This document shows positions 1 to 17,532 of a stretch of 18,430 nucleotides of DNA, in pieces. The DNA comes from a virus. Numbering within the stretch: position 1 is the first letter of the stretch; each line of letters starts with the position of its first letter. Below the pieces are notes generated by a model. That model was not told the DNA's origin. It worked only from the letters and a program-made list of their open reading frames with translations, and ran no database searches. The DNA lies in the UHGV virus genome UHGV-0119144. The stretch is one strand, 5' to 3'. Position numbers and translations under genes: made by a program.

Positions 1-62
1 GAGCACCTCAAAAACACCATCATACACTAAATCAGTAAGTTGGCAGCATCACCTATCACGGC

Positions 63-272
63 ATGCGAATTGAGCTTAAAGAACCAAATGGTAAAGCCCC
101 GACGAAAGAGCAGATCGCCTGGATGCGCAGGCTTAGAGAGGAAGGTTACTACGTCGTTCTTGCGTATGGTGCAGAACAAGCGATAACCGCCATCCTGGAA
201 TACATGAGCCTTAAAAAGGGTGAGGCTATTGAGCATGTATTGAACGGTGACAAGTGTTTGTACGCTACGTGA
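63..272 (+). CDS. Small protein resembling the C-terminal half of a VRR-NUC (PD-(D/E)xK) domain; probably a truncated remnant
   Basis: 69-aa ORF; IELKEPNGKAPTKEQIAWMRRLREEGYYVVLAYGAEQAI matches the E-x-K ... Q..W ... G..V half of VRR-NUC proteins. The N-terminal Asp-containing half is absent and an in-frame stop lies at 36-38. Confidence 0.35.
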   Translation: MRIELKEPNGKAPTKEQIAWMRRLREEGYYVVLAYGAEQAITAILEYMSLKKGEAIEHVLNGDKCLYAT

Positions 273-288
273 AATAATAAATTAATTA

Positions 289-495
289 GTGCATATGTGT
301 ATCTTTGATACAGCGCACATTAACATCGGGAGAATAATCGTGTCATCCAAGGCTAATTATGAATCGCTGGCATCGATCATGCCGCGTAATGAACAGGAAG
401 CAGATGCTGTAGTGGACCCGGTAATCGCTGAAATGAATGCTCGCCTGGAGGCTGAATTTGCAGCTGAGAATGAACATACCACCCAGGGCGACTAG
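289..495 (+). CDS. Small acidic hypothetical protein (more likely starting at GTG 340 behind GGGAG)
   Basis: ORF in track; acidic, alanine-rich C-terminus; its end overlaps the start of the next gene. No family recognised. Confidence 0.3.
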   Translation: MHMCIFDTAHINIGRIIVSSKANYESLASIMPRNEQEADAVVDPVIAEMNARLEAEFAAENEHTTQGD

Positions 496-1099
496 GACTG
501 TTTTTTGTGTCGGTAGCGGTCCGTCACTCACTCGTGAGGACTGTGCTGCTATAGAAAAAACTGGCTGTTCAATCATCGCGGTTAACAATTCCTGGCAGAT
601 GTTCGATGACATTTATGCCTTATACGCCGGTGATTTGTCATGGTGGAAGCAATACGGATCCACCATACCGGGAGGGAGATTCCGCAAAGTGACAGCCAAC
701 CTGGCGGCGGCGAAATCATTTTCGTTGGAGTACAGGCGATATTGTGGACCGGCTGAAGGGGTTAATAGCGGCGCGCAGGCTATCAGTCTGGCGGCTGAAT
801 CAGGGGCTAAAGTAGTTGTATTAGTCGGCTATGACTGTTCTCTGCAAAACGGCCTTCATTGGCATGGAGCACACCCTCAAGCACTACGGAATCCAACGCA
901 GGTGTCTATTTCAAAATGGCAACAGCAGTTCCTGGATACCCGCAAAAAACACGCAGATTTACATATTTTGAATGCAAGTAGGAGCAGTGCAATTCAATGT
1001 TTCCCAAGAATAAATTTAGAGGCAGTGATCGCGTTATTATCGTCGGCAGTGGCCCAAGCGCCGCAAACTTTGTTGCGCCGCGCGGAGTGCCGATTATAG
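470..1099 (+). CDS. GSGPS-motif protein, paralog A (sialyltransferase GT42 / DUF115-fold-like)
   Basis: Motifs VFCVGSGPSL, IIAVNNSW, NSGAQAISLA, VVVLVGYDCS arranged as in CstII-type/DUF115 nucleotide-sugar enzymes. Alternative start ATG 437. Tandem paralog of the next ORF with similar length (209 vs 208 aa). Confidence 0.5.
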   Translation: MNIPPRATRTVFCVGSGPSLTREDCAAIEKTGCSIIAVNNSWQMFDDIYALYAGDLSWWKQYGSTIPGGRFRKVTANLAAAKSFSLEYRRYCGPAEGVNSGAQAISLAAESGAKVVVLVGYDCSLQNGLHWHGAHPQALRNPTQVSISKWQQQFLDTRKKHADLHILNASRSSAIQCFPRINLEAVIALLSSAVAQAPQTLLRRAECRL

Positions 1100-1623
1100 C
1101 GGTCAATGGGGCCATAGACTGGCTTAACCGCGCTTCTTATTTTTTCACCCTTGATCCATCGCCAGACAATATGCGGCGCGTTGGTCGTGGCCGCCGTCGC
1201 CGTGGTGTTTGTTATTGCATGGCGCTACCCGATGTTAAAGAACGTGAGGTCAGAGACGGCGTTCTGTGCTTCCGTCGTGTGGCTGAGCGCGGCACGGAGC
1301 CAAAAAATACGAATTCTCCCGAGTGGTGGGCGTGGCGCTGGTCCGCACATTTCGGCCTTTGCGAAGATGAGAATGAAATTGCCAGCGGCAATAGTGCATA
1401 TGGTGCTCTGAACCTGGCTTTCCATATCGGATTCAAACATGTCGCCCTGGTGGGCGTTGACGCTACACAAGAACCACGCGTTCACTCCGGCGGCACGCCA
1501 AAAAATCTAAGTCACCTGCCTTTGTTATTCCAGTCTGCGCGTGAACAGATTGACGTTGTTTCATGCGGGAAAATGGGAGGTATTCCGCAGATGACTCTTA
1601 AAGAATGGCTGAAGAATACATGA
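997..1623 (+). CDS. GSGPS-motif protein, paralog B
   Basis: [38 protein letters not shown] motifs collinear with paralog A; overlaps the end of paralog A by about 100 nt; contains an Arg-rich stretch [11 protein letters not shown]. Confidence 0.5.
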
Positions 1624-2297
1624 TGGCACCAACAATTTATCACCGTATCGACGGTACCAAATACAGGAATATCTGGGTTGTTGGTGATCTGCATGGTTGC
1701 TACAACAGACTGATGTCCGAACTCCATCGTGTGGATTTTGACCCGGCGCAGGATTTACTGATATCGGTCGGCGACCTTATCGATCGCGGTACTGAAAATG
1801 TCGAATGTCTGGAACTATTGCAGATGCCCTGGTTCAGGGCAGTGATGGGGAACCATGAGCGGCTGATGATTGATGCGTTAAGTCCAGATGGCAACGTGAA
1901 TAACTGGCTAATGAATGGCGGACAATGGTTCTTCATGCTGGACACTGATCAGGAAATATTAGCCAGGGCGCTGGTGGAGCTGGTAAAGCGTCTGCCCTAT
2001 ATCATTGAGTTGAACACCGGGCAAGAAACTATCGTTATAGCCCATGCCGACTATCCGGATAATGAATACCAATTCGGTAAGGAGGTGCCGCTTTTCAACG
2101 TTGTCTGGGCGCGCGAGCGTATCAGTGATTCGATGGATGATATTGGTGGCGAAATTTCGGGCGCAGATCGTTTTATCTTTGGTCACACTCCGGTGAAAAG
2201 CCCGAAGACATTCTGGAATCAGCATTATATCGATACTGGTGCCGTATTTTGCGGAAACCTGACATTGATGAAAGTGAAAGGTGATGGTGCAGCATGA
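1605..2297 (+). CDS. Ser/Thr protein phosphatase, PPP/calcineurin-like family (lambda NinI / PrpA-like)
   Basis: Signature motifs GDLHG, GDLIDRG, GNHE in canonical order. Likely true start is ATG 1623, overlapping the upstream stop (TGATG). Confidence 0.85.
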
Positions 2298-2995
2298 AGA
2301 TTGCTTTAGTTCTTCGCTCTGGTGGTGACTATAACGCTTCCGATGTGCAGTGGCTGGTTAATCAACTGCCAAAAGGCTATGAAATTATTTGCCTGACAGA
2401 CCTGAAGCGTTTACATGTACCTGGCGTCAAAGTTGTCCCATTGATCAACCAGTGGCAAAAGTGCCGTGGCTGGTGGGCGAAAATCGAGTTGTTCCGACCG
2501 GATATAACCGATGATCTGTTCTATCTGGATTTGGACACGGTTATTGCCGGTGATATACGCCCAATCCTAGAGCATCCACCAACCAGCTTCACCATGCTTA
2601 GGGATTTTTACCATCCACAATATCGTGGCAGCGGTGCCCTGTGGATACCAAATAGTGTTAAAGCGCATATCTGGAGTTCATTCTGGCAAGATCCGGAAGG
2701 TTGGATTTCTCGTTGTGTCACTACTGAGTGCTGGGGTGACCAGGGGTTCTTACGAAAGGTTATGGGCGATGATACACCAGCATTTCAGGATCTGTATCCA
2801 GGATGGTTTGTAAGTTACAAGGCCGATGTTGTGGAACCTGGTTCAAAATATGCGAGCGCGCGTTACTCCAGGGGGAATGGGGCATTACCAAAAGACTGCC
2901 GAATAATCTTTTTCCACGGCAAACCGCGACCTCGCGAAGTGTCAGAGGATTGGCTTCCCCTTATCAGCTCATTTTTTGAGCGAGAATCAGAATAA
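2294..2995 (+). CDS. GT-A-like glycosyltransferase-family protein with DxD motif (function unknown)
   Basis: 233-aa ORF; start overlaps the phosphatase stop (ATGA); N-terminal beta-strand-like [11 protein letters not shown] followed by YLDLDTVI (DxD). Domain call is from motif pattern only. Confidence 0.5.
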
Positions 2996-2996
2996 T

Positions 2997-3013
2997 ATTG
3001 CTCTAATAATTCA
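2997..3013 (+). promoter_or_regulatory. P1 C1-repressor operator-like site (14/17 to ATTGCTCTAATAAATTT)
   Basis: attgctctaataattca immediately after the stop at 2993-2995. Confidence 0.55.
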
Positions 3014-3045
3014 ATATTTTTAAAACGTGATGTACACTCATCACA

Positions 3046-3062
3046 TTTTTTATTAGAGCAAT
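3046..3062 (-). promoter_or_regulatory. P1 C1 operator-like site in inverted orientation (14/17)
   Basis: Reverse complement reads attgctctaataaaaaa; forms an inverted pair with 2997-3013 around the palindrome gtgatgtacactcatcac (3027-3044). Confidence 0.5.
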
Positions 3063-3076
3063 CTGCAAGGTGCACT

Positions 3077-3295
3077 ATGTGGCCATTCCGACGGAAATAT
3101 CACTACTGGCTGATCGCCTTTGTTACGCCGACCGGCGGTATCAGGCATGTCATCACCAGGTATCGCAACAAGAGACTCACCTTAGCCAGAATTTTACAGG
3201 CTGCCATAGGTGAGGGACTGGATACAAATTGCGTAGTCCTTCCACCTTCATACTTAGGAAAAATGACCGAAGCACAAGCTAATACGGAACTTTGA
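3077..3295 (+). CDS. Hypothetical small protein (72 aa)
   Basis: ORF just downstream of the paired operators; AAGGTG 7 nt upstream of ATG; no recognisable domain. Confidence 0.3.
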   Translation: MWPFRRKYHYWLIAFVTPTGGIRHVITRYRNKRLTLARILQAAIGEGLDTNCVVLPPSYLGKMTEAQANTEL

Positions 3296-3451
3296 AATGA
3301 GCACTTCAGCACAAAACCAATCAATCGAAAATGTATCTAGAGGAAACTGCGGCAAGAAGACTTCTCGATGTTTGCTATGCACGTAGCGATGCATGGGAAA
3401 AAGAGAACGGCGGCACTATTTACGTTCGCTGATAGTTACAGTGTCACTTTT

Positions 3452-3486
3452 AATGCTGGTGGAGTGCTCCCACCAGCATTTTTTTC
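3452..3486 (+). terminator. Rho-independent terminator
   Basis: 11-bp perfect stem aatgctggtgg / ccaccagcatt with 7-nt loop, followed by a T7 run. Confidence 0.7.
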
Positions 3487-3504
3487 GTCCAATGAGGAGG
3501 GCAT

Positions 3505-4008
3505 TTGAGTATTTTCAATAAACACGCACACCAGGAACGTCCGTACATCGTCATAGTAGATATTGATGGGACGATATCAGAGGCAACGGAAGACAGGCTG
3601 CATTTACTTCCACCACCTGGCAAAGGTGCATTAACAGAGCACTGGAACGAGTTTAACCTTGCCTGTGACACTGATGCTCCCATCACTCCAGTTATTGATA
3701 TGGTGCGCCAGTTGTCCGGCATTTACACCCTCTGGTTTGTAACCGGGCGCTGTGAGATAGCCAGGGATAAAACACGAGCCTGGTTGCGTAAGCACGTAAC
3801 AAATGGGGCTGAGCCTTTGCTATCTATGCGTCCTGCCACCGATGACAGAAATGACGGTCCAGCAAAGATTGATCTCCTGAAGAAAATTGGTCTAAGTAAA
3901 ATTGCGTTCGCGCTGGAAGATAAGATTGAAGTGGCGCGTGTTTTCAGGAGTCACGGCGTACTTACGTTAATGGTCAGGGAGTATGAAAATGCGCTTCTTC
4001 ATCAATAA
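3505..4008 (+). CDS. HAD-superfamily phosphatase-like protein
   Basis: TTG start 7 nt after GAGGAGG; N-terminal VIVDIDGT (HAD motif I, DxDGT). 167 aa. Confidence 0.55.
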   Translation: MSIFNKHAHQERPYIVIVDIDGTISEATEDRLHLLPPPGKGALTEHWNEFNLACDTDAPITPVIDMVRQLSGIYTLWFVTGRCEIARDKTRAWLRKHVTNGAEPLLSMRPATDDRNDGPAKIDLLKKIGLSKIAFALEDKIEVARVFRSHGVLTLMVREYENALLHQ

Positions 4009-4027: not shown

Positions 4028-4109
4028 TGATTTTTAAAGCAAAGAAAGTGAAAATAAAAACATGCCGCAAGGCGCGGCATGTATCCAATCAATCACAGGA
4101 GCTGAAAAT

Positions 4110-4196: not shown

Positions 4197-4230
4197 GGGG
4201 AGTATATTAGCCATTTGGAACCCCACGGTC

Positions 4231-4260
4231 TCTTGCGGGTTTAATTAAGAACCCGCAAGA
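4231..4260. other. 11-bp perfect inverted repeat (stem-loop) between convergent genes
   Basis: tcttgcgggtt ... aacccgcaaga with palindromic loop ttaattaa; T-run upstream and A-run downstream, so not a canonical terminator on either strand. Confidence 0.4.
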
Positions 4261-4275
4261 AAAACACGAATTGGG

Positions 4276-7200
4276 CTATATTTTTCCGCCTACGTCTTTA
4301 AACTTCTCAATAAACGAGACGATTTTCTGGAAAACTGCCTGTTTTTTCGTTTTATATTGCGGATTTAACGGACTAAGTTTTGGTAATGTTTCGTTTAATT
4401 CTGTGCCATTTTCGGTGGCATATTTGCGTTTTAAAGATGTGCGAATATAGCGTTTTGCTGCATCTTCATTGAGATTTTCTTCTTTAATCAACGCTTCTGC
4501 TTCACGTAGCTGTTCGTGTTGAGCAAAGGTAAAGAACGCGTCAATGATGCTGGCTTTGTCTGGTAAATCATCCAGGTTCGTTTGCTGAATAAAATCGACC
4601 ACCAGGCCCTCTTTCGCCCGGTTCCCCAGGCTTGAACGAATTAAGCGTTTGACCTCTTCGATCATTTCGCCCTTGCCTTTATTTTGTCTGTTATGTTCGA
4701 AAATCAGTCCAAGGATATAATCCAGGTTTATTTCCTGAGATTTCAGCAAATCGACCTCAAAAACTACGTCATCCCAGTCAGTGGTTGATTTCTCTTTTTT
4801 CTCAGCTTCTTTCTCACGGCGCTGCCAGTCGCGAATATCGTTATAGGCAGAACGATAATCCTGAATCTTGCGATCAGCAGGGAGACGAATTGTTTGCAAT
4901 TCAGCGAACTTTTCATCATCCACATAATGTTCTGCTTTGAATTTTTCTACCGCAACAGGATCGCTAAGATCGATTTGTTGCAGGGCTTTTAGCGTGGCAA
5001 ATTCATCATAGTTTTGCAGGATGTTCTCGGCACGCAGGTATTCGCCAAACAGTTTAACGAAGTCTTTCTTCTCTTTTTCACTTTCAATACTGGCAGGGTC
5101 AGGGAACCGTTGTTCCAGTTCTGAAACTACTGTCATGAAGCCGCGTTTAGCTTCACCTGTAGCAGCATCAGTAAAGCCTTCCATATACTCTGTATAACTC
5201 TTTTCTAACACCACATTTTTGGTGTTTTTGTCACCAAACAGCGTTATGGCATCAATAGTTGAGCGTTCCAGATCCCGGAAAGTGACGATATTACCGAAGG
5301 TTTTAGTTGCATCATAAATACGGTTGGTGCGGGAAAATGCCTGCATCAGGCCGTGAAAACGCAAGTTTTTATCGACGAATAGCGTGTTCAATGTTGGAGC
5401 ATCGAAGCCGGTTAAAAACATCCCCACGACAATTAGCAGATCGATATCCTGATTTTTAACCCGCTGGGCTAAATCACGATAGTAGTTCTGAAAACCGTTA
5501 CTGTCGGTGCTAAAGTTAGTTTTAAAATGGCTGTTATATTCACGAATTGCAGCGTCCAGAAACTCTTTAGCACTGCTGTCCATTGCGCTGGTATCAAAAG
5601 TTTCATCGGAAATTTCACCAATGGCATTTTGTTCTTCATTGGCGGCAAAGGAGAAGATTGTCGCAATACGCAGCGGTTTATAGGTAGCCGATTTATTAGC
5701 GGCTTCTTCTTGTAACCGTTTAAACGTCGCATAATAGGCTTTCGCGGCATCCACGCTGCTCACTGCCAGCATGGCATTAAAGCCTTTGGAGCCTGGGAAG
5801 GTACGGTGGGTTTTCTGGCGGAAGTTGTTCAGGATATATTGCGTGATTTCCTGAATACGCATGGGATGAAGAAACGCCTGCTGATTTTCAGCCGCACTTA
5901 GTTTTTTCTCGTCAGTTTCTGTCTCTAAAGACTTAAACTGTGGCCGCACATCGTTGTAGTCTACCTTGAATTTGAGCACTTTTTCGTCACGAATCGCATC
6001 GGTAATTACATACGAATGCAATTCACGACCAAATACGCTGGCGGTTGTTTCTGAGCCTAAGGCGTTTTCCGGGAAAATAGGGGTGCCGGTAAAACCAAAC
6101 TGATAATAGCGTTTGAATTTCTTCTTCAGGTTTTTCTGCGCTTCTCCAAACTGGCTGCGGTGGCATTCATCAAATATAAACACCACTTGCTGATTATATA
6201 CAGGCAGGTCGCTTTCTGCTTTCATCAGGTTATTGAGTTTCTGAATAGTGGTGACGATAATTTTGTTATCGTCCTTATCCAGATTTCGTTTAAGACCTGC
6301 GGTATTTTCCGAGCCGTTGACGCTGTCTGGCGAAAAACGCTGGTATTCCTTCATGGTCTGGTAATCGAGGTCTTTCCTGTCGACCACGAAGAAGACTTTA
6401 TCAATAAAGTCCAGTTCTGTTGCCAGACGCGCGGCTTTAAAGCTGGTCAGTGTTTTACCAGAACCGGTAGTGTGCCAGATAAAGCCACCGCTTTCGGGGT
6501 TAGACCAGTTTTTCGCTTTATAGGAGCTGTTGATTTTCCATAAGATTCGTTCGGTGGCGGCAATCTGGTACGGTCGCATCACCAGTAGCGTCTGACTACT
6601 GTCAAAAACGCTGTAGTTCACCAGAACATTCAGCAGAGTATGTTTCTGGAAAAAGGTAGCGGTAAAGTCTTTGAGGTCTTTAATCAGCGTGTTGTCTGAT
6701 TTCGCCCAATTCATGGTGAAGTCAAAACTGTTTTTATCGCGCTTTGTCGTGTTGGCAAAATAACGGGTATCGGTGCCGTTAGAAATGACAAACAGTTGCA
6801 GATACTTAAACAGGGAATTTTCGCTGTTAAAACTCTCTTTACTGTAACGATGTATCTGGTTGAAAGCCTCACGAATCGCCACCCCGCGTTTTTTTAGTTC
6901 GATTTGCACCAGCGGTAAACCATTAACCAGGATCGTGACGTCATAACGGTTAGCATGAGAACCCGTCTGTTCAAACTGCTGGATAATCTGCACCTTATTG
7001 CGCATGAGATTCTTTTTATCTATCAAATAGATGTTCTCAAGACGCTCGTCATCAAAAATAAAGTCGCAAATATAGTCGATATGGATTTTACGGGTCTTAT
7101 CCAGAATGCCATCACTCGGGTTGTCCAGATACTGCTCCGTGAAACGCCGCCATTCGCTGTCATTAAACACCACACCATTGAGGTTCTGAAGCTGTTCCCG

Positions 7201-7392
7201 AACGTTGGCCAGCATCGCCGACTGTGATTTTACGGGTATAAATTCATAGCCCTGATTTCGCAGGTCCTGAATCAGTTCCCGTTCCAGGTCCGATTCACTC
7301 TGATAGCTGTCGCCTGTTGGCTCAGCTTTGATGTACTTATCAAGAACGATAAAGTTATTGGATTCAGCAATGGTGTGTGTCTGATGAGTCAT
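4276..7392 (-). CDS. hsdR: Type I restriction enzyme R subunit (HsdR), type IC / EcoR124 family
   Basis: 1038 aa; PD-(D/E)xK nuclease motif ([18 protein letters not shown]), helicase motifs TGSGKT and FDECH; N-terminus [14 protein letters not shown] as in EcoR124-type HsdR. Confidence 0.95.
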
Positions 7393-7513
7393 AGCGCATC
7401 CTTTGTGCCGTCTGGCAAGGGCCGGAAGGGAGTTAAGGGCGACTTCCGGCGTGTAGAAAATAGTCTATATACTGACCGGATGTTAAGGTGGTCCGGTCTG
7501 TAAAAATGCTCAA

Positions 7514-8727
<1,214 letters not shown>

Positions 8728-8731
<4 letters not shown>

Positions 8732-10290
8732 TTCTGCACCTCGCAGCCTTCAATTTCAGCCACAATCGCATCAATATCTTTACGCAACTGGTCGATTTTG
8801 CTGACCGTGGTTTTCAGCTCTGCATTCAACTCAGCGATATTGATAATTTCGCGAGTATCTTTCGCTTCCACATAGCTGCTTACCGACAGGTTATAGTCAT
8901 TAGCGACAACGGCCTCAAACGTGACAGATTTTGCCAGATGAGCAACATCTTCCTTGCTGGAAAATACCTGCATAATCTGTTCGATATGGGCATCAGTCAG
9001 GATGTTGTTATTAGTCTCTTTTTTGAATAGCTCGCTGGCGTCAATAAACTGAACGTTGGTATCGGTTTTATGTTTAGACAGCACCAGAATATTGACGGCA
9101 ATGGTGGTGCCAAAGAACAGATTCGGTGCCAGTGAAATCACGGTTTCGACATAGTTATTGTCGACCAGATACTGACGGATTTTCTGCTCCGCACCGCCAC
9201 GGTAAAAAATACCCGGGAAGCAAACAATCGCAGCACGACCTTTGGCAGAAAGATAGTTCAGCGCATGTAATACAAACGCAAAGTCAGCTTTGGATTTGGG
9301 GGCCAGAACGCCAGCCGGGGCAAAACGTTCATCGTTAATCAGCGTCGGGTCATCGCTGCCAATCCATTTCACCGAATACGGCGGGTTAGAAACGATGGCA
9401 TCAAACGGTTTTTCATCTCTGAAGTGCGGTTCAGTCAGCGTATTGCCCAGCTTGATATCAAACTTGTCGTAGTTGATGTTGTGCAAAAACATGTTCATAC
9501 GCGCCAGGTTATAGGTCGTATGGTTGATTTCCTGACCAAAAAAACCTTCTTCGATGATATGGTCATCAAACTGTTTTTTAGCCTGCAACAACAGCGAACC
9601 GGAGCCTGCTGCCGGGTCGTAGATTTTGTTAACGTGGGTCTGCCCGTGCATAGCCAGTTGTGCAATCAGCTTAGAGACGTGCTGCGGTGTAAAGAACTCG
9701 CCGCCTGACTTACCGGCATTTGCCGCATAGTTAGAGATCAGGAACTCATAGGCATCACCGAACAGGTCAATCTGATGTTCGTTGAAGTCACCAAGTTTTA
9801 ACCCTTCAACCCCTTTCAGAACCGCAGCCAGGCGGGCATTTTTATCTTTAACGGTGTTACCCAGGCGGTTACTGGTGGTATCGAAATCAGCAAACAAACC
9901 TTTGATGTCTGCTTCTGAAGGGTAGCCGTAAGCAGAACTTTCGATAGCAACGAAGATGCTGTTTAAATCTGCGTTCAGTCTGTCATTGGTATTTGCTTTC
10001 GCAGCTACGTTGCAGAAAAGCTGACTTGGGTAGATGAAGTAGCCTTTGGTTTTGATGGCATCGTCTTTAATGTCATCAGTAATTACGCTGTCATCCAGTT
10101 TCGCATAACAGATGCTGTCATCACCGGCTTCAATATAGCTGGAAAAATTTTCGCTGATAAAACGGTAGAAAAGCGCGCCCAGAACGTATTGCTTAAAATC
10201 CCATCCATCGACCGAACCTCTGACATCGTTAGCAATTTGCCAGATTTGACGATGAAGCTCTGCACGTTGTTGAATACTTGTCATTTTCAT
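8728..10290 (-). CDS. hsdM: Type I N6-adenine DNA methyltransferase subunit (HsdM), type IC
   Basis: 520 aa; SAM-binding motif [10 protein letters not shown] and catalytic NPPY. Confidence 0.95.
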
Positions 10291-10427
10291 CCACTTATTT
10301 CAGGCTTATGTAATTGGCGGTGATTCTACAGCAACTTGGATGCTTTAGCAGTTCGGACATTAGGCTACGAATGACCTGCCTAGAGGTTTGTTAAGCCGCA
10401 AAGTGCTGGTGCTTTATGCCTGTGAAG

Positions 10428-12411: not shown

Positions 12412-12726
12412 ATGTTACTTAACTGGCAGGGACGCCACTTCATGGAAATAAATCACTCACGAATAACATCGTACGAGATTGCGAATTACATGATCCGCAC
12501 TAAATCTCTTCTATCAGCGAAAGAACTCGCAGCAATTCTTGAAAAGGAATACCCGCATCTGGATGTCGATAAGCGCGATGTTTATCTGCGCTTAAAAGCT
12601 ATCGCTGTGTCTAAGTATTCGTCTGTTTTGATTGATGACAGTACGAACGAAAGCGTGAAAATAACTGGTCAGTGCTGGAAGCAGCTGAATTCATCGAGGC
12701 GCATGGCGGGAAAGTGCCGCCCCTGA
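12412..12726 (+). CDS. Hypothetical protein (alternative start ATG 12442); possible late-activator (lpa-position) gene
   Basis: ORF downstream of an operator; no domain recognised; overlaps the next ORF by 55 nt. Confidence 0.3.
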
Positions 12727-13043: not shown

Positions 13044-14956
13044 TGGCCAGAAGTTGCGTAACGGATCCACGTTGGCGCGAGCTGGTGGCGCTATATCGTT
13101 ATGACTGGATTGCGGCCGCTGATGTTTTGTTCGGCAAAACACCTACCTGGCAGCAGGATCTGATTATTGAGTCTGTGCAGGAACAGGGTAGCAAGACATC
13201 TGTTTCGTCTGGTCACGGTACCGGGAAATCAGACATGACTTCTATCATGATCATGTTGTTCATAATCATGTATCCCGGTGCCCGCGCCATTATCGTTGCG
13301 AACAAAATTCAGCAGGTAATGACCGGTATATTCAAGTACATCAAGATAAACTGGGCTACTGCCACCAGCCGTTTTCCATGGCTTGCTGATTATTTTGTTC
13401 TGACAGAAACCGCTTTCTATGAGGTTACTGGTTGGATTTGCCCCTATATTTCCAGACACCTGTTATCACTTAACCCATTACTGGCTTGCTGCCGTAGATA
13501 TTCCCGTGGCGAGCGATAACCCAGTGCACTATGCGGATGCCATTCGTTATAATGCTCGAACGCCTCTGCAAGGTTCTTTGCTGCCGTTAACCCGTCTGGT
13601 TTGGGCATGACACTGATGTAGTCACGCTTTATCGTTTTCACGAAGCTCTCTGCTATGCCGTTACTCTCCGGACTCCGCACCGCCGTGCTCTTCGGTTCAA
13701 GCCCCAACATCCGGGCAAACTGCCGTGTTTCATTAGCCCGGTAGCATGAACCATTATCCGTCAGCCACTCTACTGGAGACGCCGGAAGCTCGTTGCCGAA
13801 GCGGCGTTCCACCGCTCCCAGCATGACGTCCTGTACTGTTTCACTGTTGAAGCCGCCCGTAGTGACCGCCCAGTGCAGTGCCTCACGGTCACAGCAGTCC
13901 AGCGCGAACGTGACTCGCAGTTTTTCTCCGTTATCACAGCGGAACTCGAACCCGTCAGAGCACCATCGCTGATTACTTTCTTTCACAGCCACTCTGCCTG
14001 TATGTGCCCGTTTCGATGGCGGTACAGCAGGTTTTCGCTCAAGCAACAGCGCATTCTGGCGCATGATCCGGTAAACACGTTTGGCATTGATCGCAGGCAT
14101 ACCATCAAGTTCTGCCTGTCTGCGAAGCAGCGCCCATAACAGTGAGGAATCACCGCTGGTAACGTCAGAATTTATCAAAATGAAGCTGGCGGAGTACGGC
14201 GGGCGTGATAACCCTATGTACATGATTAAGGTACGCGGCCTATTCCCTAAATTACAGGACGGCTTCCTTCTTGGACGTGATGAGGTTGAACGTGCGACGC
14301 GGCGGAAAGTCAAGATTGCCAAAGGATGGGGCTGGCTTGCATGTGTGGACGTTGCTGGTGGTACAGGACGGGATAAGTCCTTTATCAATATCATGATGGT
14401 GTCCGGCCAGCGAAATAAACGCCGTGTAATCAACTATCGAATGCTGGAATACACAGACGTTACAGAAACGCAGCTTGCCGCCAAAATTTTCGCAGAATGT
14501 AATCCTGAGCGATTCCCCAATATCACCATAGCGATAGACGGCGATGGCCTGGGTAAAGCAACGGCGGATCTGATGTACGAGTATTATGGTATTACCGTAC
14601 AGCGTATACGCTGGGGTAAAAAGATGCATAGCCGTGAAGATAAGAGCCTGTACTTTGATAAACGTGCTTATGCCAACGTTCAAGCCGCAGAGGCCGTAAA
14701 ATCTGGTCGTATGAGACTGGATAAGGGTAATGAAACTATTGAGGAAGCGTCGAAAATCCCTGTAGGGATTAACTCCGCAGGTCAATGGAAGGTGATGAGT
14801 AAGGAGGATATGAAGAAAAAACTCAACCTGCACTCACCAGACCATTGGGATACATATTGTTTCGCTATGCTGGCGGATTATGTTCCCCAGGACGAAGTGC
14901 TTAGCGTCGAAGACGAAGCGCAGGTTGATGAAGCTCTGGCATGGCTTAATGAATAA
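13043..14956 (+). pseudogene. Terminase large subunit (PacB-like) interrupted by an IS2 fragment
   Basis: N-terminal 130 codons (13043-13432) carry a deviant Walker A (SSGHGTGKS); C-terminal part (about 14139-14956) is terminase-like. The two parts are separated by 706 bp of IS2 and are not joinable in frame. Confidence 0.55.
13433..14138 (-). mobile_element. insD: IS2 (IS3 family) 3' fragment: right terminal region plus C-terminal ~230 codons of insD
   Basis: Minus-strand translation 13444-14136 matches IS2 InsD from [28 protein letters not shown] to NRCLEI; IS2 terminus TGGATTTGCCCCTATATTTCCAGACACCTG at 13433. insC and the left end are absent. Confidence 0.88.
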
Positions 14957-14959
14957 ACA

Positions 14960-14976
14960 CTTGCTCTAATAAATTG
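14960..14976 (+). promoter_or_regulatory. P1 C1 operator-like site (15/17), Op51-like position upstream of immI
   Basis: cttgctctaataaattg, 4 nt after the terminase stop. Confidence 0.55.
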
Positions 14977-15107
14977 TGTTTTTTGACTGCCGATGTTACA
15001 TTGAACCTGACCTCTTGCGCCTTGAGGCATTTTCGGTTTATGCTTATCAGGCACCTCATTAAAACGGGTGCCGGGATTGAGACCCCGGATAATGTCAAAG
15101 GCGACAC

Positions 15108-15130
15108 AGACGCCGAAAGCGTCTTTTTTT
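15108..15130 (+). terminator. Rho-independent terminator / attenuator inside the immI leader
   Basis: Stem agacgc / gcgtct with loop cgaaa, followed by a T7 run. Confidence 0.6.
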
Positions 15131-15315
15131 GTGTCATGCCATCGCACAGCCATACGTAGCGTTTAGCTCCGAAATCAATGGTAGTGCTGGCTGGGCTGCC
15201 GAAAGGCAGGCCGGTTCCCTTTGACGCCGGTAGTCTCAACCCAGTCAGTGCTACCGCCATTGAGATTGAGACCTCACGCGGTAGCTCCTTAACTTAGTCA
15301 AAGGAGGCTGCCATT

Positions 15316-15537
15316 ATGGCTACTGTCCCTACCCCAATTCATCCTGAATTTATCTGGCGCTTTTACTCCTGCCAAAAACGTCACTATCACTTCGTTATTG
15401 CACCGACAGAAGATGAGGCCCATTCTCAGCTTCCTGACGCTCCCTGCATTTTCTCTGCCCGCTTTTCAACCGATTTGCGCAATTCTCTCAGTTACTGGTG
15501 CCTCCCTGTTAACGCTTCTGCTCAGGAGGGACTATGA
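15316..15537 (+). CDS. Icd-like small protein (73 aa), translationally coupled to ant
   Basis: AAGGAGG RBS; stop overlaps the ant start (ATGA); size and position match P1 icd. Sequence identity not confirmed from memory. Confidence 0.45.
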   Translation: MATVPTPIHPEFIWRFYSCQKRHYHFVIAPTEDEAHSQLPDAPCIFSARFSTDLRNSLSYWCLPVNASAQEGL

Positions 15538-16648
15538 GAACGTCATTAGTTACCCGTGAAGAGATGATCGAGGCAATTGAACAGCACACTGCCTGTATCA
15601 GTACTAGGGATATACCGGGCGTTATTGCCAACTACTTCATGATCACCAAACAACTTTACCGGAGAAAGGACAAGAACGCAGTTCACCGCATCCTGCTGTC
15701 TGATATCCGCGAATACCTGCTCGAACAGGGGCATCTGAATTACGCAACCGTCGCAGCCGAAGCACGCAAGGAGGCACACAGAATGAAAGCTACTAACGTT
15801 AAATCAGAAAAAGTTCATGCACCTTCAGTTCAGGAATCAGAGCTGGTGGTTGTTCAAAATCAGTCGGATGAAATTCCCGTTCTGGAGTGGCAGGGAGTGC
15901 GTGTCGTAACAACCGAAACTCTTGCTAAGGGGTATGGTACAGAAGCGATTCGCATTCGCCAGAATCATCATGAGAACAAAGTACGCTTTGTTGAAGCGAA
16001 GCACTTTTTCAAGGTTATTGGCGATGAGCTGAAAAATTTGCGGGTAGCTTTAAACTACTCACAAAATCCAGTCTCCCCCAAAGCGCGCTCTCTCATCCTC
16101 TGGACAGAACGAGGAGCTGCCCGTCACGCTAAAATGCTCGAAACCGATCAGGCATGGGCATTCTTTGAAAAACTGGAAGACAGCTACTTCCGACAAAAAG
16201 AACAGCAACCGGTCGCAATCCCCCAGACGCTTCCAGAAGCTCTGCGCCTGGCTGCCGAGTTAGCTGAACAAAAGCAACTTCTGGAACAGAAAGCCCACCA
16301 GCTAAATCAGCAGCTGGTGGCTGCCGCTTCTAAAGTCGATTTTGCCGACCGGGTATCAGTAGCTAAAGGGATCCTGATTGGGAATTTTGCAAAGGTCGTT
16401 GGACTTAAACAAAATGCGCTGTTTGCCTAGTTACGGGAGAACGGCATTCTGATAGCGTCCGGAGGCCGTAAAAATGTACCGTTCCAGCAGTACATCAACG
16501 CGGGTATTTCACGGTGAAAGAAGTGGTGCTGGATGATGAAGATGGCTACCAGATACGGTTGACGCCTCAATTAACGGGTAAAGGCCAGCAGTGGTTGACG
16601 CGTAAACTGCTCGATGCTGGCTTGTTAAAACCGGTGGCGGCTGAATAA
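15534..16648 (+). pseudogene. ant: Antirepressor (AntA/Bro-N-like core plus KilAC-type C-terminus) with nonsense and frameshift lesions
   Basis: Open to TAG at 16428-16430, sitting where KilAC proteins have an aromatic residue (LFA*LRENG). The downstream KilAC-like sequence continues in frame as ILIASGGRKNVPFQQYINAG, then shifts by one frame near 16502 into GYFTVKEVVLDDEDGYQIRLTPQLTGKGQQWLTRKLL. Confidence 0.6.
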
Positions 16649-16655
16649 TGGAAGA

Positions 16656-16686
16656 ATGCCCGGTTGATGCCGGGCATAATTTATTG
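16656..16686. terminator. Hairpin between convergent ant and c1; candidate bidirectional terminator
   Basis: Stem atgcccgg / ccgggcat with loop ttgatg, followed by AATTTATT. Confidence 0.45.
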
Positions 16687-17532
16687 CGCGCTTTCGGGGT
16701 TGTCGTTTACTGGCTGCCCCTTCTTGGTTTTACGGCTGCGCGTAACTGATGCGGCTGACTTAACCTTTTTCTCTTCGCGAGTGATGGCAATTTGTTTTTT
16801 TACATTTTCAATATCTGCCAGGCGATATATTTTTGCTTGCGGCCAGCGGTCGCAGATGATCGGTTCTATGGAGTCATAAAGGCTAAATTTTGCTTTTTCG
16901 AATTCACCGTTGATGATAATTCCATCACGGAGAGTTTCATCGCAGATAAACACGCCACACAGTGGCACATGGTAACTAACTGATTTACCATCATTGTAGT
17001 TAGGGCTACTGGAAATGTAGTGGACGCGCAGCATTGTTTCGCTAAAGCCGTGTACGCGCATACGGAATTTTTCATCCTCCGGGTACTGCTTCATTAGCTC
17101 TTTTGTTGCTTCCAGGTTCTCTATGTATTTCGCACTGTGCTCATTGATCCCCGCGCTTTTTTGGATGCGAATGTCCTTATCAATCAGATGAATAATGCGG
17201 CCAGCGGTCATGTTGACGCTGTTCACAGCTTCTGTCTGATAAGTTGTAACCTTACGCACACCGCGAAGGATGTTAGGCACTGGATATAAAATAGTCTTTG
17301 GGATATTGAGGTCTGGGTACTGTTCCAGTTCCCGCGCCATTAAAGTCCATTTATCAATTTCAGCCTGAATGCTGTCAGTTTCTTTGAACGGTAGAACGAC
17401 AACCGGGCGTACAGGACGACCGTCGCTGGCTGTATCAACGTGTTGGGCGCGTGCAACAGCTTTTTTTAGAAAGAGATCCCTGAAGCTGACGAACTCCTGG
17501 TACAGTTGTTCGCCGTAGACATAATTTATCAT
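16681..17532 (-). CDS. c1: P1 C1 repressor of lysis
   Basis: 283 aa, MINYVYGEQLYQEFVSFRDLFLKKAVARAQHV...; strong RBS GGAGGAGG; TATAAT in the upstream intergenic region. Confidence 0.95.
   Translation of the reverse strand: MINYVYGEQLYQEFVSFRDLFLKKAVARAQHVDTASDGRPVRPVVVLPFKETDSIQAEIDKWTLMARELEQYPDLNIPKTILYPVPNILRGVRKVTTYQTEAVNSVNMTAGRIIHLIDKDIRIQKSAGINEHSAKYIENLEATKELMKQYPEDEKFRMRVHGFSETMLRVHYISSSPNYNDGKSVSYHVPLCGVFICDETLRDGIIINGEFEKAKFSLYDSIEPIICDRWPQAKIYRLADIENVKKQIAITREEKKVKSAASVTRSRKTKKGQPVNDNPESAQ

Follow-up and report, generated by a model that had tools for sequence, protein, structure and literature searches.

The closest described counterparts of the locus analysed here are the C1-controlled operators of phage P1, of which 15 annotated ones were compared; these differ from the 17-bp C1 consensus ATTGCTCTAATAAATTT by 0 to 7 mismatches, with the variation mostly at positions 14-17. 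A perfect 13-nt core is present in seven of the 15, Op86a and Op86b among them, and Op99e (ATTGCTCTAATAATTCT) is almost identical to Op86a. Two P1 operators, Obanab (Op72ab) and Oc1ab (Op99ab), are bivalent, i.e. they consist of two asymmetric 17-bp sites, the first on the plus and the second on the minus strand (convergent), combined with a sigma-70 promoter whose annotated -35 element is the TTGCTC in site a; owing to an overlap of 6 bp between the sites the total is 28 bp, with the centres 11 bp apart. For Op86a and Op86b, now OpmgRa and OpmgRb, the P1 record AF234172 uses the label 'monovalent C1-controlled operators', states that they control pmgR and pmgS, and annotates a predicted sigma-70 promoter, PpmgR, with the pair, and the P7 record (AF503408) carries two annotated C1 sites at the equivalent place. 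The annotation notes cite earlier deposited sequences for Op68, Op82, Op88 and Op94, with none cited for Op86a/b, and in the literature searched (the P1 genome paper, Lobocka et al. 2004, excluded) we found no published experiment on C1 binding at this pair. The gene pmgR is an essential head-completion gene of P1.

We report that the window, i.e. the whole stretch of DNA analysed (18,430 nucleotides, UHGV virus genome UHGV-0119144), is a degraded P1-like plasmid prophage from E. coli. The surroundings of the locus are 97-99% identical to P1, P7 and approximately 700 P1-like plasmids from E. coli, Salmonella and relatives, with 98% identity to P1 (AF234172) across the operator region. Alignment to AF234172 places window positions 54-3339 at P1 79210-82494 and 3338-4200 at P1 83620-84482, and the local gene order is ppp, pmgQ, the operator pair, pmgR, a truncated pmgS and pap. 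According to the list of open reading frames pmgQ (2294-2995, plus strand; orthologous to P1 pmgQ, 81449-82150) is the last gene of the pmgN-ppp-pmgQ unit and its stop codon ends 1 nt upstream of the first operator, while the controlled gene pmgR (72 amino acids) is located at 3077-3295 on the plus strand behind an AAGG ribosome-binding site at 3067-3070. The pmgS remnant (3297-3386, plus strand) comprises 29 codons followed by a stop, due to an internal deletion of 1125 bp relative to P1 (P1 82495-83619 missing) with its junction at 3338/3339. Among 682 matching plasmids only NZ_CP010179 (E. coli H15 plasmid A) and NZ_CP086387 have this junction; two further plasmids carry different deletions at the same spot, and the coiled-coil gene pmgS therefore looks deletion-prone. 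Upstream of pap, a strong terminator-like hairpin with 11 pairs, six of them G-C, and a T5 tail (3452-3480, plus strand) closes the pmgR-pmgS unit. The cognate repressor gene, c1, is present on the same element (16681-17532, minus strand) and its product is 99% identical to P1 C1 (281 of 283 residues compared with C1.100).

The remainder of the window departs from P1 at several places. A type I restriction-modification cassette (4201-10390) with hsdR (4276-7392), hsdS (7514-8731) and hsdM (8728-10290), all on the minus strand, replaces P1 pmgT through humD (P1 84483-87969). In the P1 record the DNA on both sides of that gap is 96-98% identical to the flanks of the EcoDXXI and R124/3 hsd genes, and the cassette appears to represent the link already known to exist between P1 and the EcoDXXI/R124/3 hsd loci. 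A strong terminator-like hairpin (4060-4082, minus strand) lies near the P1/hsd junction, approximately 190 nt downstream of hsdR. At approximately 12642-12644, within an open reading frame at 12412-12726, 1097 bp are deleted relative to P1 (P1 90224-91320). The missing DNA comprises the 3' half of lpa, LPpac (a late promoter) and the 5' two-thirds of pacA, and of the 131 positions in the Pfam model for Lpa the remnant matches no more than 1-64. The prophage is probably unable to activate its late genes or to package DNA. The pacB gene is interrupted by a stretch of approximately 700 bp that is absent from P1 (13431-14138, with a minus strand open reading frame at 13444-14433) and that encodes an integrase-core (rve) domain; the stretch resembles part of an IS3-family element. 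A second insert absent from P1 is located between pacB and c1 (14957-16681) and carries an open reading frame (15534-16430, plus strand) with ORF6N and KilAC antirepressor domains; at the start of this insert, approximately 570 bp upstream of the gene, there is an operator-like site, CTTGCTCTAATAAATTG (14960-14976, plus strand), with two mismatches. The gene may encode an extra C1-controlled antirepressor.

The two operators of interest are OpmgRa, ATTGCTCTAATAATTCA (2997-3013, plus strand), and OpmgRb, ATTGCTCTAATAAAAAA (3046-3062, minus strand), each with 14 of 17 positions, i.e. all but three, matching the consensus. They are the orthologues of P1 82152-82168 and 82201-82217, both annotated as C1 protein_bind features. 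The gap between them (3014-3045) is 32 bp and the total span 66 bp; 13 nt of one site and 13 nt of the other form a perfect inverted repeat, ATTGCTCTAATAA/TTATTAGAGCAAT. An earlier note on this DNA, made from the letters alone, had described two 14/17 C1 operator matches in opposite orientation 32 bp apart, at the junction between an enzyme module and the small genes that follow, and this description is borne out: the coordinates, mismatches and gap are as described, the sites lie at the boundary between pmgQ and pmgR, and their positions are precisely those of annotated C1 operators in the P1 records. A 14/17 match is normal within the P1 C1 operator family. Since the pair corresponds base for base to operators annotated in P1, and P7 likewise has two annotated C1 sites there, it is already known. 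Within the 66 bp the window differs from P1 at two positions only: 3013, the 17th position in operator a, where C has become A, and 3045, where G has become A; both substitutions are private to the window among the approximately 190 loci compared. The same pmgS deletion is present in E. coli H15 plasmid A, which is the closest plasmid, but its operator region reads as in canonical P1.

We give virtually no credence to a functionless chance cluster of AT-rich operator-like words: each site does match at only 14 of 17 positions in an AT-rich region, but the window has six consensus matches with at most three mismatches where 0.11 are expected (200 shuffles of the window, none of which reached six), and the perfect 13-nt cores are 96-98% conserved compared with 23-73% in neighbouring DNA, so that this explanation is already refuted.

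To follow the region across P1-like elements it was collected from approximately 190 loci among phage hits, plasmid hits and IMG/VR contigs; a scan of species-representative genomes gave two loci only, both identical to P1, and the diversity was supplied by IMG/VR and by BLAST searches against phages and plasmids. The loci represent 21 distinct variants, 19 of which are exactly 66 bp long, while the other two are off by one base in a homopolymer run. Five variants are divergent, with neighbouring genes approximately 70% identical (Cronobacter phage JK004, a Salmonella Newport plasmid and the loci L086, L087 and L088). In these five the operator cores are 98% (a) and 96% (b) identical to P1, compared with 67% for the spacer, 64-73% for the hairpin stems discussed below, 50% for the loop, 56% for the 20 nt upstream and 23% for the 10 nt downstream. 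The cores are far more conserved than their surroundings and both sites are under purifying selection, and such strong selection on the pair out to the Cronobacter phage supports real C1 control of pmgR. Taken together with the annotation, it is very likely that we are dealing with the promoter-operator region of the P1 pmgR-pmgS unit, with OpmgRa and OpmgRb acting in C1 repression.

The predicted promoter PpmgR, as transferred from P1, occupies 2998-3026 (plus strand) with its -35 element TTGCTC (2998-3003) inside operator a, a 17-bp spacer and the -10 element TAAAAC (3021-3026). This -10 element does not have the critical T at -7, and it reads TAAAGC or TGAAGC in the divergent relatives. An alternative candidate is present at 3010-3038 (plus strand), with the -35-like TTCAAT (3010-3015), again a 17-bp spacer, and the -10-like TACACT (3033-3038), which coincides with the loop of the central hairpin. 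Within the P1 clade the loop hexamer reads TACACT, and in the remaining lineages TATCAT or TATTAT; it is the sole -10-like hexamer that keeps A2 and T6 in every lineage. In the window TTGCTC-17-TAAAAC and TTCAAT-17-TACACT both score 7/12 and a simple sigma-70 consensus scan calls neither; the best promoter score, 9/12, was obtained for TTTACT-16-TATCAT in JK004. As a candidate the loop hexamer is better conserved than the annotated TAAAAC, which suggests that the -10 element annotated for PpmgR may be misplaced. With the loop as -10, transcription would start at approximately 3045-3046, site a would overlap the -35 element and site b would cover roughly +1 to +17. Two other promoter types were considered. 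Nothing similar to an Lpa-dependent late promoter (a 9-bp -22 box of the AAGTGACTTT type, 4 bp and a -10 element) was seen in 2997-3062 when compared with the five annotated P1 late promoters, and a leftward promoter using TTGCTC of operator b as -35 was dropped by inspection, as its -10 positions read AGTGTA or ATGATA.

Between the operators, the sequence gtgatgtacactcatcac (3027-3044) had been read as an 18-bp palindrome. It is in fact a 6-bp inverted repeat, GTGATG/CATCAC (7 bp in P1), around the non-palindromic 6-nt loop TACACT, and it is followed by T6. AAAAC and ATTTT flank the 6-bp stem; with one mismatch the repeat extends to AAAACGTGATG/CATCACATTTT, and TTTTTTATT comes thereafter. The hairpin (3026-3045, plus strand) has the arms CGTGATG (3026-3032) and CATCACA (3039-3045) and the loop at 3033-3038; A3045, the second of the two substitutions, breaks the closing C-G pair, leaving a stem of 6 bp in the window compared with 7 bp in P1. 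The T-tract TTTTTTATT (3046-3054, plus strand) is located directly 3' of the hairpin and overlaps operator b at its 3' end. Through the loss of the closing pair the predicted fold weakens from -8.5 kcal/mol in P1 to -7.6 kcal/mol in the window, with 3-4 G-C pairs.

The stem is CGTGATG/CATCACG in P1 and CATGGTG/CACCATG in the divergent clade; the stem pair 31-48 has changed from GC to AU and the pair 34-45 from AU to GC, and each of the five divergent sequences carries both double changes. Overall 97% of the stem cells are paired, and T columns 50-55 are invariant in the 19 variants. As plus strand RNA the core folds in all relatives (-8.5 to -9.1 kcal/mol), while the minus strand fold falls to -5.8 kcal/mol in JK004 and L086 because their U-G wobble pairs only as plus strand RNA. 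The two compensatory changes separate only two clades, are few as independent events and may go back to one split between lineages. Within the P1 clade, single substitutions (three wobble-compatible and six disruptive) disrupt the stem about as often as they spare it; this is about the ratio expected under neutral change, and they were therefore not used as evidence for pairing.

The locus has the anatomy of an intrinsic terminator, i.e. a G+C-containing stem (at the weak end), a 6-nt loop and a U-rich tail, together with the compensatory change and strand specificity expected for one. A consensus scan flags the hairpin with its T-tract as terminator-like; the scan is unspecific (40 sites in total, 18 expected) and was not relied on alone. 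No covariance-model match to Rfam 15 was found in 2800-3600, and the one match elsewhere was at chance level (E = 0.9). In the literature and data searched we found no Term-seq or other 3'-end data for P1. The half of the P1 record in question (AF234172 50001-94800) has no annotated terminator features at all, and the lack of an annotated terminator at Op86 consequently says nothing. On the predicted structure and its conservation, we would put the chances at about even that the hairpin and U-tract act as a weak intrinsic terminator closing the upstream pmgN-pmgQ unit, which suggests that the upstream operon may be insulated from pmgR.

We propose that in a lysogen one C1 monomer would occupy each 17-bp site. 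Site a would cover the -35 region and site b the start or the early transcribed region, upstream of the pmgR ribosome-binding site; with the two sites at -35 and at the start, the promoter core would be bracketed and so kept shut. Once C1 is inactivated, the host sigma-70 RNA polymerase would transcribe pmgR, and also pmgS in intact phages, to the terminator at 3452-3480. The hairpin would form in plus strand RNA approximately 30 nt past the pmgQ stop codon, where it probably reduces read-through out of pmgN-pmgQ; according to the P1 annotation, this upstream unit is driven by LPpmgL, P1pmgL/O26 and PpmgN/Oppp. Transcripts from the pmgR promoter would escape the hairpin since with either -10 element they would start inside or after it, and pmgR would be a separately gated unit. 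We consider this explanation as a whole, i.e. a C1-bracketed pmgR promoter with a terminator-like hairpin, to be likely. More tentatively, and in our view less likely than not, the layout may be a composite 'terminator inside a promoter', in which the pmgN-pmgQ terminator lies between the C1 sites, its loop is the real -10 element and its U-tract is the AT-rich end of operator b. If so, upstream transcripts would stop at the hairpin and locally started ones would escape, with C1 gating only the latter, and the composite would explain why the operator pair is split by exactly 38 bp compared with the bivalent operators. As far as checked, such a layout has not been described for P1.

For the pair itself the earlier note had proposed looping or the co-binding of a second factor around the central repeat, on the view that an inverted pair is unusual for C1. 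The orientation is the same in the bivalent Op72ab and Op99ab and as such not unusual; the wide separation is what differs, as those sites overlap. Concerning the first proposal, C1 monomers could touch directly or via the co-repressor Lxc, wrap the 32-bp spacer and lock the promoter by cooperative binding or a micro-loop. The almost invariant 66-bp span (approximately 190 loci, 21 variants) would agree with this, as would the use by C1 of plus-then-minus pairs at the bivalent operators, and C1-mediated looping in the c1 regulatory region was reportedly observed by Heinzel et al. 1994. However, the centre-to-centre distance of 49 bp corresponds to approximately 4.7 turns, is far below the persistence length and places the sites roughly 120 degrees out of phase, while the 11 bp between the centres of the bivalent operators is one full turn. 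The fixed span needs no loop, because the -35/-10 geometry and a hairpin of fixed size explain the spacing, and by eye no match to the IHF consensus WATCAANNNNTTR, as a site for a bending protein, was found between the operators on either strand. Beyond the fixed spacing we found no feature of the locus that speaks for a loop or a second factor, and we regard cooperative binding or looping as unlikely.

We find it harder still to favour a long RNA hairpin in pmgQ read-through transcripts, in which a 13-bp outer stem, made by the two operator cores, and an 11-bp inner stem would serve for processing by RNase III or as a stabiliser, uncoupling the message of pmgQ from that of pmgR. In its predicted fold (-23 kcal/mol, z = -5.6) the 86-nt RNA does contain both stems, but an outer stem arises automatically from any inverted identical operators, and 10 of its 13 pairs never vary, i.e. 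it shows no covariation, so that its conservation is explained by C1 binding alone. Moreover, termination at the inner hairpin would mean that transcription seldom reaches the 3' outer arm.

A second factor in the form of a dimeric regulator, with the central repeat as its DNA site and acting with C1, is in our view highly improbable. The repeat is conserved as a repeat and its arms have changed symmetrically between the clades, which co-evolution with a dimeric protein could also bring about. Against this, the repeat behaves as a transcribed hairpin: an invariant T6 immediately behind the stem and an A-run ahead of it are in keeping with a terminator and not with a protein site, and the T-G combination in JK004 and L086 pairs only as plus strand RNA, with collapse of the minus strand fold. 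Furthermore, the repeat is unlike the Lpa -22 box of the P1 late promoters, no candidate protein is known, and Lxc alone does not bind DNA (PMC8546580).

Little changes for the field with respect to the operators, as the P1 and P7 GenBank annotations have carried the pair since the early 2000s. What is possibly new is the conserved, covarying hairpin with its U-tract, the loop of which may be the true -10 element of the C1-bracketed pmgR promoter; this would tidy the P1 transcription map.

Operator copies on either side of the polymerase region are also present at gal (OE/OI) and lac (O1/O3), where dimeric or tetrameric repressors form in-phase loops of 90-115 bp, sometimes with HU. The likeness to Op86a/b is a functional analogy only, since C1 is reported to bind as a monomer and its asymmetric sites are 49 bp apart and out of phase. 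With enterobacterial Rho-independent terminators the predicted one between the operators has in common the stem-loop followed by U6, the preceding A-run and the compensatory stem changes; compared with typical intrinsic terminators the stem is short and weak (6-7 bp, approximately -8 to -9 kcal/mol) and it is nested in a promoter-operator region, where its U-tract at the same time forms the AT-rich end of a repressor site. Within P1, Olpa/Plpa (Op94/P94) and Odmt/Pdmt (Op68) have an operator that overlaps the -35 element by its last few bases, as operator a would if the loop is the -10 element; unlike Op86a/b, Plpa and Pdmt have one operator each, with no second, inverted copy downstream. The bivalent Op72ab and Op99ab share with Op86a/b the order and orientation of two asymmetric sites and the annotated -35 TTGCTC in site a, whereas the Op86 sites do not overlap but are separated by 32 bp, span 66 bp in total with centres 49 bp apart, and have a hairpin and T-tract between them. 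The nearest system is the P1 OpmgRa/OpmgRb pair with PpmgR itself (AF234172, AF234173 and NC_005856), together with the P7 pair: locus, orientation, 66-bp span and flanking genes are the same, and the window differs from P1 in the substitutions at 3013 (C to A) and 3045 (G to A) and in the truncated pmgS downstream.
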